From NCBI RefSeq assembly GCF_006345805.1, contig NC_043010.1, positions 37,572,001 to 37,636,000 on the forward strand: 64,000 bases of DNA, given 5' to 3'. Source of the stretch: Octopus sinensis (taxonomy: Eukaryota). The notes beneath the pieces are model-generated. The model was not told where the DNA came from. It was given only the letters and a program-made list of their open reading frames with translations, and searched no databases. The translations under genes were made by a program, and so were the position numbers. This document shows, in pieces, positions 17,586 through 61,614 of this stretch; within the stretch, counting starts at the first letter, position 1; each line of letters begins with the position of its first letter.

Positions 17586-17628
17586 ACTAGACTAGTTTCG
17601 CCTGAAAAATTACAAGCTCGCCAGTAGT
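17586..17628 (-). ncRNA. Minimal type I hammerhead ribozyme-like motif (A6G core variant)
   Basis: ACUA-CUGGCGA-GCUUG uaauuuuu CAGGC-GAAA-CUAG-UC-UAGU. Confidence 0.55.
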
Positions 17629-17877
17629 GACTACTCCATCGCCGTGGTCACTACTGACTATATAGGTGCCTGGGACATTAGCGAAGGCATTATGTATGCT
17701 CATATCAAGTCATTCTTGATTGTGAATGAAGACAGTAACGCATACATACATACATACATACATACATACATACATACATACATACATACATACATACATA
17801 CATACACATACTCACGCACACACATATAAATATACGCATACACATATGCATACATTTACATATCTTTTTATCATTTA

Positions 17878-18287
17878 TCTTTTACTTGTTTCAGTCATTG
17901 AACTGCGGCCATGCTGGGGTACAAGCTTCGAAGTTTTAGTCGGACAAATTGACCCAGTGCTTTTTTCTTAAAGCTTGGTACTTATTCTATCGGTTTCTTT
18001 TTGCCGAACCGCTGGTTCACAAGGACGTAAACAAACCAGAAAGAGACGCGCGCGCGCACACACATTTATAAATAAACATGCACACACTTATAAATAAACA
18101 CACACACACACACACACACACACACACATATATATATACGACGGGCTACTTTCAGTTTCATCTCACAAGGCTTTGGTCGGCCTGAGACTACAGTAGAAGA
18201 CACTTGCCCACGGTGCCATGCCGTGGGACTGAACCCGGAACCTTGTGGTTGGGAAGCAAACGTCTTACTACCCAGTCACGCCTGTAC
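17878..18287 (-). mobile_element. SINE family A, diverged
   Basis: Similar to the other family A copies. Confidence 0.7.
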
Positions 18288-18301
18288 CTATATATAAGTC
18301 T

Positions 18302-18574
18302 GGCATTCCTTCGATATAACTCGACAAAATCAAAACATTTCACTTCGGGTATTTCCGTGGAAGCAAATGACAGTTCGATTCTGTTTTCTGCTTGGAAATT
18401 TGAGGATTTTATATTCTCACATGAAACAGTTTAGAACAAATAAGCAAGGCTTCTTTTCTTCAAGTTGAAAATGAGACATTGCTGTCATAATTTCGTTATA
18501 TCTGTACTCCACAACCCACGGAAATACCCGAAGTGAAATGTTTTGATTTTGTCGAGTTATATCGAAGGAATGCC
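18302..18574. mobile_element. MITE/foldback with a perfect ~59-bp terminal inverted repeat
   Basis: GGCATTCCTTCGATATAACTCGACAAAATCAAAACATTTCACTTCGGGTATTTCCGTGG and its exact reverse complement. Confidence 0.8.
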
Positions 18575-19518
18575 CTAAGTATATATTTATATATGTTTAT
18601 ATATACACACGCACCGCATATATATAATTATGATTGTGTGACTGTTGATAGATGAGTAACAGCGAGAGAAGTTATGCTGTTAGTCAATGTAAAATGTTAC
18701 CAAACATACCAAGAGAGAGGCGACGATTGACATGTTTATGTCTGTGGCAATACTTCTCGTTCTTTTTGCTGTATTACTTTTAATATTTGTTTTACTACAC
18801 ACACACACACACACACACACAATGCAGAGACATATATGCATAAGTATATATATATATTTAGTATACACATCTACATACGTATATGTACACAAACACACAT
18901 TCACACACACACACACACACACACACACACACATGTATGTATGTATGTATGTATGTATGTATGTATGTATGTATGTAAGTATGTGTGTATGTATAAACAT
19001 ATACTCTTTTACTCTTTTACTTCTTTCAGTCTTCTGACTGTGGCCATGCTGGAGCACCGCCTTTAATCGAGCAAATCGACCCCAGGACTTATTCTTTGTA
19101 AGCCTAGTACTTATTCTATCGGTCTCTTTTGCCGAACCGCTAAGTTACGGGGACGTAAACACACCAGTATCGGTTGTCCCTCTATACACAATCATACAAG
19201 CCTCTTTAAAAGTGAAATGACATTGAAAATGGATGATGGAAAAACAAACGTCTGTGGAAAACTCTCGTCAGTTCTCCGACCATATATAATAACAGTTTCA
19301 GTACATTTAACTTACATCATCTTTCATCTGGCGGGTGCAAATGATTCTAAACACCATTAAGGACAGTATTATAAACGTCTGGAAAATTAATATTCGGTGG
19401 ACAACTTCCAGCACCCATTTCTTGTCTACCACATTCACCACACAGCGTGTCAAACGAAGAAGCTTCTAGAAATAGCTGCGAACTTCTCCTCAAAATCGTA
19501 AAGACGCGCAAGTACAAA

Positions 19519-19683
19519 CAGGGCCGGCCCTAGGGTTGTTGGCGTCCCGATAAGCTGAACTTCGGCGTGTACAAGCTGACGGTCGTGGAAATTTCCTTGT
19601 TTTTGTCACGCTCTTCTTGGCGACCCCTAGCACAGGGCGCCCCGGGCGACTGCCCGAGTTGCCGGTACCTTGAGCCGGCCCGG
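19519..19683. mobile_element. GC-rich hAT-type MITE
   Basis: TIR CAGGGCCGGC / GCCGGCCCGG; 8-bp TSD AGTACAAA / AGTGCAAA. Confidence 0.7.
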
Positions 19684-57974: not shown

Positions 57975-58532
57975 AATAATAATAATAATAATAGTATAAA
58001 AGATGGGCTACAGCAAATATTCTGCTCAATACCACAGATTTGCTTGTCAGTTGTTTGACCTTAACCAGTTGAGCATGTCCCTTAGTGGCTGACGATATGT
58101 GCATCTCTGATCACGAGCAGAAGTAGTGAGGGAGCATCATAACCATGTGTTGAAAGGGATTCTTTGGGGTTTGAATAATTCACCTTTGGAAACAGGGGTG
58201 TTTCGTTCAACATCCTTAAACAACCCTTATTCAGGGACCTTTTGAGCGGGATGGGCTACTCGACCAGAACAAAATTCTAACTGGACCCCACCTGCAAGGT
58301 CATGTGCTGTTTATCTTAATATGAGATCACCATGTCGCGCACATATGGTTGTGATGCATGTGCCTAGTGTACCCTTATCAGACGGGTAGTCATGATGGGT
58401 ATACTGGGTTTCATATATTTTACCCCAGTGTCACTTTGATGGCATGCACTGCTCTCTCACATGATAATAATAATAATAATAATAATAATAATAATAATAA
58501 TATAATAATAATAATAATAATAATAATAAAAT

Positions 58533-59185
58533 AAATGAAACCATTGATCATGTCTCCGTGTGCAGTCTTCTTGCGCCTACAGAGTGTCTCAACAGGCATG
58601 ATAGAGCAGCACAATATATTCACTGGGTAATTTGCAAAAACCTGGACCTGTCCCATGATAAAAACTGGTGGGAATACAAACCACTTCCAGTGCTTGAAAA
58701 TGATCACATCTCACTCCTCTGGAACTTCACCATTCAAACTGACACAAAGATAGGCCAGACTTCAGACAAAAATTATGCCACCTCATTTATATGACTGTCC
58801 CAATCGATATACGCGTATCTGTCAAGACCTACCAAAAAACTGAGCAAGTATAAAGATCTTGAAATAGAAATTAGCAAAATGTGGAACCTCAAGACTAAAA
58901 CAATACCTATTTCTTTACTACCCACAAGGGGCTAAACACAGAGGGGACAAACAAGGACAGGCACACGGATTAAGTCGATTACATCGACCTCAGTGCGTAA
59001 CTGGTACTTATTTAATCGACCCCGAAAGGATGAAAGGCAAAGTCGACCTCGGCGGAAGTTGAACTCAGAACGTAGCGGCAGACGAAATACCGCAAAGCAT
59101 TTCGCCCGGCGCGCTAACGTTTCTGCCAGCTCGCCACCTTAAACAATACCTGTTGTCATAGGTGCCCCAGGAATGATAGCAAATG
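58533..59185 (+). mobile_element. R4/Dong-type fragment interrupted by a family B SINE (58909-59140, minus strand)
   Basis: RHDRAAQYIHWVIC..WWEYKP..LLWNFTIQTD; SINE flanked by the 11-bp TSD AAACAATACCT (58898-58908, 59141-59151). Confidence 0.8.
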
Positions 59186-60932
59186 GGACTGATTTCACCC
59201 GCGTCTACGCTACAGTTTAATTGTCTTAAACATCAACTTTACATCAGCAATAACAACAACAGTCATATCAACGACCTTTTTTCCCCCCACATATTTTTAA
59301 AATGATTAAACCGAGAAAGAAAATTACCGTTGCGAAATAGTTAAATCGTTGAAACAGTGAAAACAAATAACAGGAGTCATTGATATTGCTTTCACATATG
59401 TTCGATAATCTAACGTTCGATAATGTAATGTTCAGTTGCTCTATGAACATTGTTATCGTGTTGTCTCCAGACATGGCGAATCACATGGACGAATGAAACA
59501 GGTTGAAATGTTTTATCATGAGGAGAAAGCGTGGTGGGAGCGGGGGATTTAGAATAAACAGGCCATTGATAGGACTGACCACTCTTACCAGGCAGTGGCT
59601 CTCGTGGCTTCTGATCTTAACTGATCGGAAGTGTTATCATGTACATTGTTTTGTCTTGTTATAAAAGATGGGCTACAGCAAATATTCTGCTCAATACCAC
59701 AGATTTGCTTGTCAGTTGTTTGACTTTAACCAGTTGAGCATGTCCCTTAGTGGCTGACGATATGTGCATCTCTGATCACGAGCAGAAGTAGTGGGGGAGC
59801 ATCATAGCCATGTGTTGAGAGGGATTCTTTGGGGTTTGAATAATTCACCCCTGGAAACATGGGTGTTTCATTCAACGTCCTTAAACAACCCTTATTCAGG
59901 GACCTTTCGAGTGGGATTGGTTACTCGACCTGAAGAAAATTCTAACTGGGCCCCACCTGCAAGGTCATGTGCTGTTTATTTTGATATGAGATCACCGTGT
60001 CGCGCACATATGGTTGTGATGCATGTGCCTAGTGTACCCTTATCAGACGGGTAGGCATGATGGGTATACTGGGCTTCGTATATTTTACCCCAGTGTCACT
60101 TTGATGGCATGCACTGCTCTCTCACTCAATAATAATAATAATAATAATAATAATAATAATAATAATAATAATAATAATAATAATAATATTAATAATAATA
60201 ATTTTGAAAAATTTTTTGATAGAAACAGAATTTTGAGAGTCAAAACTATTGAAAAGGTTGCAAGACGCAACGAGAATTTTAGGAAAATAAAAATAAGAAA
60301 TAAGTGGAAATTTTACTGGTGAGTGTGTTAAATTATAAGGCATAAAAAGAAAATGACTCTCCTCAGACACAACAGAATATGCTTTAACACACGAACTCAA
60401 ATAAAGAATCTTGCAAACTAAATACCAAAAGAAAAAAGAATCTTTGAAATTGTAAGTAAATATTAATCAGAATGTAAAGAAAACGATGATGTGTGTGTGT
60501 TTGTGTGCATGCGTATACAAACGCATACATGTGTCTATCTGACTCGATTCTATCTGTCCACGGTAAATCGAAATTCACGGATTGAATAATTCTAAAATAA
60601 CATTCACCAGACACGTGACTAAGATTTTTCGAAAAGTTTTTTTATTCTTGAATATTCTGAGCAGAAATAGGAAAACAGAAAATCTTGGTATTTTGTATCG
60701 ACACATTCTGATTTCAAATCCCGCCTAAAATCAACTCCGTTTCTCATCTTTCCAGGGCTGACAAAGTACCAATCAAGTACTGGAATCGATATAACGCACA
60801 CACAAGCACACACACACACACACACACACAAGCACACACACACACAACACACACACACACACACACACACACACACACACACACACACAACACACACACA
60901 CAATGTCATAATGCAAGAGAAACAACACGATA

Positions 60933-61233
60933 CCGGATTAGACGACAGTGCCGGATTAGATGACAGTGCAGGATTAGATAACAGTGCCAGATTAGATGAC
61001 AGGGCCGGATCAGGTGATAGTGACGGATTAGATGATAGTGCCGGATTAAATGACCATTCCGGATTAGATTATAATGTCGAATTAGATGACAGTAATGAAT
61101 TAGATGACCGTAACGGATTAAATGATAGTCCTGGATTAGACGACAGTACCCGATTATATGACAGTACCAGATTAGATAACAGTGCCGGATTAGATGTGAG
61201 TGCCAGATTAAGTAAGCGTGTCGGATTAGATAG
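60933..61233. repeat. 18-bp-unit minisatellite (CCGGATTAGATGACAGTG)n, about 17 units
   Basis: Direct inspection; reads (GLDDSA)n on + and (RHCHLI)n on -. Confidence 0.85.
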
Positions 61234-61576
61234 CATTCCCATCTGACACCATGGTTGCCTTTTAGCTGAGTTGCAAGCATCCGATGTAGCTCTTCGAGTT
61301 GTGGAAATTTTCTAATCTCCCTTCTATCAACCTCGCAGACCCAATAAAGGATCATAAGTGTAGCTCGATAAATGATGAGACATAGAAAACATAAAAAATC
61401 GTCATTGCAGCCGGATCAGATCTGACCTCTCTGAATCCATTGAAAAAGATATATTATTATTATTATTATATATATATATATATATATATTATATATATAT
61501 ATTATATATATATATAAGGAGAGAGAGATCGCTGGCCACTACACATTCTTTATTTTCTCTCGTTTCTTTCTGTGTT

Positions 61577-61614
61577 ATTTTCTGTAGAAGAGCGTAGGCT
61601 CGAAACGTTAGAGA
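61577..61614 (+). ncRNA. Minimal hammerhead-like motif (A6U family)
   Basis: UAUUU(U)-CUGUAGA-A-GAGC guag GCUC-GAAA-CG-UU-AGAGA. Confidence 0.5.

Follow-up and report, generated by a model that had tools for sequence, protein, structure and literature searches.

Nine hammerhead ribozyme repeat families in a 64-kb segment of the Octopus sinensis genome: ends of coding Penelope-like elements and non-coding units probably inserted by Penelope proteins

A 64-kb stretch of the Octopus sinensis genome (NC_043010.1, positions 37,572,001 to 37,636,000; G000:C14:37572001-37636000; genome size 2.72 Gb), hereafter the window, holds 12 sites at which an initial annotation had proposed minimal type I hammerhead ribozymes. 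All 12 are members of repeat families with such a hammerhead, at a rate far above chance, so that its count of about a dozen is upheld. We hold with considerable confidence that these sites represent nine families: four would be the terminal repeats (pLTRs) of coding Penelope-like elements (PLEs), at least two would be closed non-coding units of 340-365 nucleotides (nt), all were likely inserted by the reverse transcriptase (RT)-endonuclease of PLEs, and their hammerheads are predicted to cut slowly, as pairs. The families are A1 (25670, 50646 and 61577), A2 (50473), B (50839 and 52162), C (17586) and, with one site each, D (26562), E (31213), F (38320), G (55685) and H (56033). The stems had been taken as unrelated between families, but comparison of the stems makes 25670, 50646, 61577 and 50473 one homologous group (A group). 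Core positions are named by the standard hammerhead numbering, in agreement with the papers cited below.

Scanned with a strict type I descriptor (at most one core mismatch allowed, stem III required to be palindromic), the window yields 6 sites, whereas each of 6 shuffles yields none. With a relaxed descriptor (score of at least 9), 8 sites are found, namely: 25670, 31213, 50473 and 50646 on the plus strand, and 17586, 38320, 52162 and 56033 on the minus strand, compared to 5 summed over 30 shuffles. The window rate therefore exceeds that of shuffled sequence, as the initial annotation had expected. Sites 26562, 50839, 55685 and 61577 are missed by both scans because their window copies have decayed; other copies of their families fold as a hammerhead. 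A comparison sample of 600 kb, made up of 12 places that each lie on a different contig, was scanned with a descriptor without the palindrome rule and gave 16 matches, 9 of them palindromic. Shuffles of it gave 1, 4 and 1 matches, none of them palindromic, and the reversed sequence gave none; the same descriptor finds 5 matches in the window, which is thus about three times denser. By homology, the 600 kb hold 18 A1 and 5 A2 copies that span the hammerhead and, among matches of at least 50 nt, 3 of C, 3 of D, 5 of F and 0 of B, E, G and H. Extrapolated from this sample, A-group copies number roughly 10^5 genome-wide.

A chance origin of the layouts, as fortuitous matches in repeat-rich DNA, is next to impossible. 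Several window copies are indeed decayed and shuffles do give an occasional match, but one A-group pattern has 28,675 exact matches in the genome versus 0 for its reversed control, and homologous hammerheads stand behind related PLEs of other organisms. Furthermore, 93% of the cells of the A-group three-way junction are paired, compared to 13-48% in slid controls, and stems I and II of 15 A-group sequences contain 14 cells changed on both sides, with 0 of 500 shuffles as high; the covariation anticipated for these families is therefore found in the A group. It should be noted that no Rfam model attains its gathering score in the window or in loci L116, L281 and L327, and that around 56033 Rfam gives no match even at E 10. 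The Rfam E-value matches in the window (150 listed of 246) were set aside as microsatellite-driven microRNA-type models, not hammerheads.

Families A1, A2, D and E run upstream into RT/endonuclease frames, and six of the 12 sites are therefore pLTR remnants, i.e. the 3′ terminal repeats of 5′-truncated coding PLEs of four families. The hammerhead at 25670 is the 3′ end of a 5′-truncated element on the plus strand (22917..25845) whose RT spans 22917-24502 (Pfam RVT_1, E 4e-8). This element is collinear with locus L283, in which RT, a CxxxxCxxC linker and GIY-YIG all lie in one open frame (in Pfam, RVT_1 passes the cut-off, and GIY-YIG, at E 0.008, does not). In the window copy, a 141-nt tandem duplication lies at 24400-24682, where about 200 nt with the cysteine linker and the GIY-YIG motif are missing, and no YIG motif is present in any frame; the C-terminus of the endonuclease (~24672-24860) is followed by a C/T-rich 3′ untranslated region, the hammerhead terminal repeat and a (TA)n end. 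RTs like the one at 22917 had been named as movers of the non-coding families. The copy at 22917 itself cannot be the mover, since it is 5′-truncated and without a GIY-YIG motif, although other genomic copies of the same family do contain long open frames. The 30 best A1 copies show nested 5′ truncations, and 9 of them besides the window copy extend to the endonuclease/RT region, while most A1 copies comprise the last 150-300 nt only.

A protein search yielded 5,846 candidate RT loci, of which 150 were scored and 20 were fetched for long frames or lower identity. Among the 150 scored, open frames reach 1,009 aa from stop to stop. In 6 of the 20 fetched loci the hammerhead flanks the RT frame on both sides, 4.3-4.5 kb apart; 5 of these carry the core CUGUUGA on either side, and in the remaining one the 5′ core is CUGCUGA. 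The full-length A1 order is hammerhead, RT/GIY-YIG frame and the same hammerhead again. Two more distant loci (L293 and L295; 57-69% protein identity) bear the A2 hammerhead of 50473, and one of the 20, L297, has no hammerhead. Family D could be followed for a further 1,084 nt upstream in two loci (L225 and L215), into RT-thumb and endonuclease frames with profile matches of 3e-17 and 3e-5. Family E extends ~650 nt further upstream into endonuclease-like frames in L269 and L266; the L269 frame matches the D endonuclease (tblastn E 9e-15) and gave no match to the A-type profile, so its link is weaker than that of D. For D and E, hammerheads on both sides of the frame were not seen. On their organization, with RT plus GIY-YIG at the C-terminus upstream of a hammerhead repeat, A1, A2, D and, less firmly, E can be classed as endonuclease-containing (EN+) PLEs, and the association with Penelope through many families proposed for this DNA is borne out.

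Families H and C, by contrast with these coding PLE ends, read as closed non-coding units, i.e. as retrozymes. In H, the sequence downstream of the hammerhead equals the upstream sequence at an offset of ~362 nt, with a period of 360 in 40 of 40 rows, and natural head-to-tail tandems occur at 362-365 nt. The unit has a GC content of 43-45% and no ATG frame longer than 71 aa. As a circle it folds at -115.8 (shuffles -82.2 ± 6.2) and -128.8 (shuffles -88.1 ± 5.8) kcal/mol, which lies 5-7 standard deviations below the 40 shuffles. C closes at a period of ~340 nt (seen downstream in 17 and upstream in 7 of 25 copies). G is probably a closed unit of ~410 nt, from few loci; a microsatellite lies within its tandem in L308/L309, which may have arisen by local duplication. 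F is possibly one of ~490 nt, from one locus. The suggestion that every family is a non-coding retrozyme moved in trans is accordingly true of H and C and probable for G and F, and short A1 copies might still serve as templates in trans. As a general rule it is very improbable, being contradicted at 6 of the 12 sites, where A1, A2, D and E enter RT/endonuclease frames. What survives of the trans-mobilization proposed in the initial annotation is the non-coding nature of H and C and, for H, the marks of PLE insertion.

These marks were surveyed in 81 H loci comprising 118 blocks. The 3′ ends fall into two classes, at +209..215 (54/118 blocks) and +264..272 (47/118), usually running into (TA)n. 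Among the 33 loci with both orientations, the inverted pair has one arm of each end class in 24, two like arms in 0 and an unclassed arm in 9. The two fixed ends match the PLE tail, which is described in PMC8557442, and the two RT start sites to which that tail is tied in PMC11167929; from this tail rule, the inversions and the (TA)n neighbours, we infer that H was inserted by PLE proteins. Pieces of PLEs also adjoin seven H loci, in sense (L092, L100, L110 and L439) or antisense (L095, L438 and L459) orientation. These are apparently chance neighbours, the three compared having only the H part in common, and the PLE RT of L100, which had been considered as linked to H, was dropped as one such chance neighbour.

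It is conceivable, if rather unlikely, that H spreads without cutting or circles, through read-through transcripts of a few tandem loci that are reverse-transcribed directly. Tandem loci of up to ~2.5 units (921 nt) do exist, the 5′ ends of H blocks are spread uniformly round the unit, and arrays may be collapsed in the assembly. On the other hand, the 82 exact H matches are scattered and include no long array, the unit has a strong circular fold, and linear copying would shorten the family at each round, yet 39 of the 118 blocks are longer than one unit.

The stem III regions bear on how such units would be cut. Self-complementarity of stem III, claimed for most of the hammerheads, holds for most families: the A-group loop is CG in 89 of 92 strict A matches, H has CACGUG in 36 of 40 copies and B has CAGCUG in 15 of 38 rows, while the commonest forms are CUAG in C and CGCGCG in E, and D has CAAUUG. 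It does not hold for G (55685), whose UACGCG is not palindromic and looks like a decayed CACGUG, and F (38320) has an odd-length near-palindrome, UCCGGGA in 16 of 29 copies. The CAAUUG listed for 50839 is present there, but as a minority form of B (2 rows versus 15 with CAGCUG), for which reason stem III covariation within B was dropped. An A1 monomer cannot close stem III, whose loop is 2 nt long. The H dimer has the double hammerhead as its minimum-energy fold (-27.5 vs -8.9 per monomer), as computed by a folding program that ignores the hammerhead core, and dimer cleavage of such hammerheads is reported in PMC4209133 and PMC6765202. We envisage that a transcript with two hammerheads would pair them via the self-complementary stem III, and that the paired hammerheads would slowly cut it to unit length, the product probably being circularised. 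A PLE protein would then nick (TA)n DNA, and reverse transcription would begin at one of two internal sites and pass through the hammerhead, at times beyond one unit.

Several observations weigh against this account. Only 5 of the 118 H blocks have a 5′ end within 7 nt of the cut site, where ~5 are expected, and among 44 A1 matches the 5′ ends are likewise not piled up at the cleavage site (2/44). Nothing was found in the sequences to connect H with any PLE. The double hammerhead of an A1 dimer (-13.7) is weaker than both the best dimer fold (-26.8) and two monomers, and no cleavage was seen in 8 of 9 dimers of frog retrozymes (bioRxiv 2026.07.22.740005). In addition, F and G rest on few loci, and B showed neither a closed unit nor an upstream PLE frame in 38 rows.

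The commonest core is canonical (CUGANGA ... GAAA ... UH) in B, C, E, F and G, carries U4C in D and H, and is CUGACGA or CCGACGA in A2. In A1, position 6 is U rather than A, which makes it a core variant rather than a canonical type I hammerhead. By hand count, 51 of the first 100 A-group matches listed have U6, all with a 4-nt loop II, and 42 with the exact loop GUAG. Scaled up from the initial 13 Mb of a single contig, exact U6 copies with the GUAG loop number ~12,000, and a position 6 other than U occurs in only 474 exact GUAG-loop copies genome-wide. Among the first 100 of the latter listed, C is found in 68, A in 23 and G in 9 (hand count), an excess of C over A and G that is expected from the decay of U. 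The relatives point to the direction of the change: of 80 related PLE loci in metagenome records, most of which are short or end too early, 5 show a homologous hammerhead directly behind the frame, and all 5 have A6 (two with U4C), which makes U6 the derived state.

The core was also compared in 36 A1 copies from 1.13 Mb chosen with regard to neither A1 nor the core, after one copy with a deleted core had been dropped. U6 is present in 31 of the 36; position 7 is A in 13, U in 14, C in 5 and G in 4, and position 17 is A in 24, U in 8, C in 4 and G in 0. A second allele in at least 4 copies is seen in 2 of 21 columns of core, stem II and palindrome, compared to 47 of 108 flank columns (p 0.003). 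Compensatory changes in the stems are seen within the U6 clade (L011). These patterns suggest that, despite U6, selection still maintains the remainder of the A1 fold, and a neutral dead relic is improbable.

Position-6 changes lower hammerhead activity (PMC3088659, PMC9901934), and in one system a PLE hammerhead cut only when its protein was present (PMC11167929). We lean slightly toward the A1 U6 hammerhead being a weakened, protein-assisted ribozyme. Evidence on the other side includes a mutational scan in which single CUGA changes gave low activity (PMC9901934), a natural A6C hammerhead that cleaves at <0.1 per min (PMC3088659), and in vitro PLE insertion that was not stopped by hammerhead mutants (PMC11167929). 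Moreover, loop II is as invariant as the core in the A1 copies, and the A1 column profile was seeded with exact-core copies while T-rich flanks align loosely. The lowered activity of position-6 variants, the dispensability of cleavage in vitro and the invariant loop II, together with the scattered A1 5′ ends and the disfavoured A1 dimer, would fit a tentative alternative, in which the U6 hammerhead of the dominant clade does not cut and its fold persists because the PLE protein uses it, near the RT start, as a signal for binding or folding. Against such a non-cutting signal, only core positions 7 and 17 vary among subfamilies and G17 is absent from the 36 copies, which is the pattern that catalysis would impose, and the compensated stem changes lie inside the U6 clade itself. 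Our literature searches returned no report of a natural A6U hammerhead, although Lunse et al. 2017 or supplements may list such variants.

A further layer is found within H. Three of the 81 H loci, L411 (G000:C7:109255500-109263500, minus strand), L412 and L413, two of which were selected for their spacing, hold an insert of 1.7 kb that is complete and occupies an identical position, 31 nt ahead of the hammerhead, with a flanking direct repeat of 12-17 nt; the copy in L412 additionally holds a piece of a mariner-like transposase. The insert has a frame of 451 aa with a CCHC knuckle, and its ratio of non-synonymous to synonymous differences (pN/pS) is 0.15-0.19 over 205 codons, a sign of purifying selection. 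Its protein has ZCCHC3-like look-alikes, which we take as a lead only; it gave no match in the protein database or among solved structures, and zf-CCHC stayed below cut-off. Frames homologous to it elsewhere in the genome precede endonuclease-RT frames. The insert is likely an element of the Tx1/L1 type reduced to its first open reading frame (ORF1), with a preference for the H site. The converse, that the resulting 2.1-kb form is the coding parent element of H, is disfavoured, since none of the 81 loci is truncated within the insert and direct repeats flank it; furthermore, synonymous sites of the insert differ by 14-32%, whereas the H flanks differ by 2-4%. Another ORF1-only unit, apparently tandem, lies in L141 (about 1-1970, minus strand), and its 3′ end resembles that of the H insert, which suggests a wider family of half-Tx1 elements.

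Taken together, these results allow a bolder picture, which we put forward tentatively. U6 would have become fixed in the most prolific Penelope lineage of the genome (~10^5 copies), either rescued by protein or serving as a non-cutting ribonucleoprotein signal, while a 362-nt retrozyme circle would be copied by Penelope proteins and itself be specifically targeted by an ORF1-only Tx1 element, giving three tiers of parasitism.

The individual copies in the window are as follows. On the plus strand, the A1 hammerhead at 25670..25707 has the U6 core CUGUUGA, an extra A, a stem II of 4 base pairs (bp) and loop CG; that at 50646..50683 (core CUGUCGA) lies in a solo terminal-repeat fragment at 50625-50796, and that at 61577..61614 (core CUGUAGA, stem I decayed) in a solo fragment at 61553-61720. 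The initial list of sites was incomplete in that it missed three further fragments of this family: two terminal-repeat pieces on the minus strand (26726..27055), one cut within the core and the other with a changed G8, and a plus-strand piece (34358..34503) from which the middle of the hammerhead is deleted. The A2 hammerhead (50473..50507, plus strand), which belongs to a PLE family that is sister to A1, has the U4C core CCGACGA and a 3-nt loop II, within a terminal-repeat fragment at ~50438-50612. Family D, the 3′ end of a coding PLE as well, has core CCGACGA, a long stem II with a ~60-nt loop and stem III CAAUUG. Its decayed window copy occupies 26504..26609 on the plus strand and has a G.G mismatch closing stem I; here the left half of the site listed at 26562 had been misplaced, as stem I, the core and the long stem II begin ~58 nt earlier, at 26504. 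The E hammerhead (31213..31302, plus strand; fragment 31135-31429) has a canonical core, a 12-bp AU-rich stem II and stem III CGCGCG.

The putative retrozyme fragment of H (55858..56078, minus strand) contains a hammerhead at 56033-56073 with core CCGAUGA and stem III CACGUG, and that of C (17455..17640, minus strand) one at 17586-17628 with stem III CUAG, in which the window copy has A6G where the family core is canonical. An old copy of G, the probable ~410-nt closed unit, spans 55657..55838 on the plus strand (hammerhead 55685-55730, canonical core). F lies at 38184..38599 on the minus strand and includes a second arm in inverted orientation; its hammerhead (38320-38378) has a canonical core and UCCGGGA as stem III. 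An F fragment without hammerhead lies at 48931-49055 on the same strand. The two B fragments, also on the minus strand, are at 50792..50923, with a decayed hammerhead at 50839-50920, and at 52115..52246, with a hammerhead at 52162-52242 and stem III CAGCUG. Long near-perfect hairpins are seen at 18291-18587, 55286-55371 and 38184-38518, the last being the inverted arm pair of F. The open frame at 57174-57884 on the minus strand, beside an (AAT)n run, presumably resembles the C-terminal end of a non-LTR (long terminal repeat) retrotransposon protein.

Some features of the hammerheads recur across families. U4C (CCGA) is the common core of three unrelated families, A2, D and H, and is also present in the relatives L349 and L357; CpG decay of CCGA restores the canonical CUGA. 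Families B, F and G have an extra unpaired nucleotide between stem II and G12, as after A9, so that the core-adjacent pair is often mismatched. Hammerhead families absent from the window were noted in L155 (+3078), L171 (+9037), L294, L107, L014, L252, L282 and L106, with stem III loops CUCAGAG, CCUAAGG, CGUACG, CAUAUG, CAAUUG, CG and CAGCUG; an odd-length near-palindromic stem III recurs among them.

PLE hammerheads are poor cutters alone and were not needed in one in vitro system. The U6 lineage, which is the most successful family of this genome and has close A6 relatives, offers a natural test of whether cutting matters. The two-end rule of H would provide direct genomic evidence for PLE insertion of retrozymes, a link earlier argued mainly from co-occurrence and homology. 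Many such short fragments are probably annotated as unclassified short interspersed nuclear elements or simple repeats. Our literature searches found no report of hammerheads or retrozymes in octopus, and two cephalopod repeat papers (PMC13282606, PMC8967140) list PLEs, with the word 'ribozyme' not occurring in their available text.

The overall system has been described before; its new details are the U6 clade, the Tx1-like insert and the tail rule, which is shown by a retrozyme with dispersed copies. Cervera and de la Pena 2014 (PMC4209133) described minimal hammerheads in PLE repeats, with many families per genome and action as dimers. The octopus families resemble these in having both terminal repeats, a short stem I, an extra nucleotide after A9, a palindromic stem III, many families per genome and mostly solo, truncated copies. 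They differ in that the dominant clade has U6 fixed across subfamilies, whereas the portion of that paper available reports a U3-A8 swap and no position-6 change; in that U4C is the common core of three families (A2, D and H); and in copy number, which is ~10^5 here by extrapolation and thousands there. With the Neptune-type EN+ PLEs (Craig et al. 2021, PMC8557442), a clade assigned here from the linker motif alone, they share an RT, CxxxxCxxC linker and C-terminal GIY-YIG in one frame (L283) as well as (TA)n neighbours, partial tandems, inverted 5′-truncated pieces and the tail. Animal non-LTR retrozymes have been described by Cervera and de la Pena 2020 (PMC7229834), and Li, Clavereau and Pollet 2026 (bioRxiv 10.64898/2026.07.22.740005) have argued for their PLE origin. 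Like those, H consists of head-to-tail units that are non-coding and a few hundred nt long, with a GC content of 43-45% and one type I hammerhead per unit, and PLE dependence has been proposed. Unlike them, H is dispersed (82 exact matches of at most ~2.5 units) rather than in long arrays, and its hammerhead is a minimal one with U4C. The 2026 preprint used co-occurrence and pLTR homology, as far as its accessible part goes, whereas H displays the two-site PLE tail rule directly, as read here from DNA alone. Finally, the insert in H resembles target-specific Tx1 elements and internally deleted non-autonomous long interspersed nuclear elements (Kojima 2015, PMC4494074) in its CCHC ORF1 and direct-repeat flanks; the targets given there are DNA transposons, LTR elements, small nuclear RNA genes, satellites and microsatellites, whereas the apparent target here is a retrozyme.

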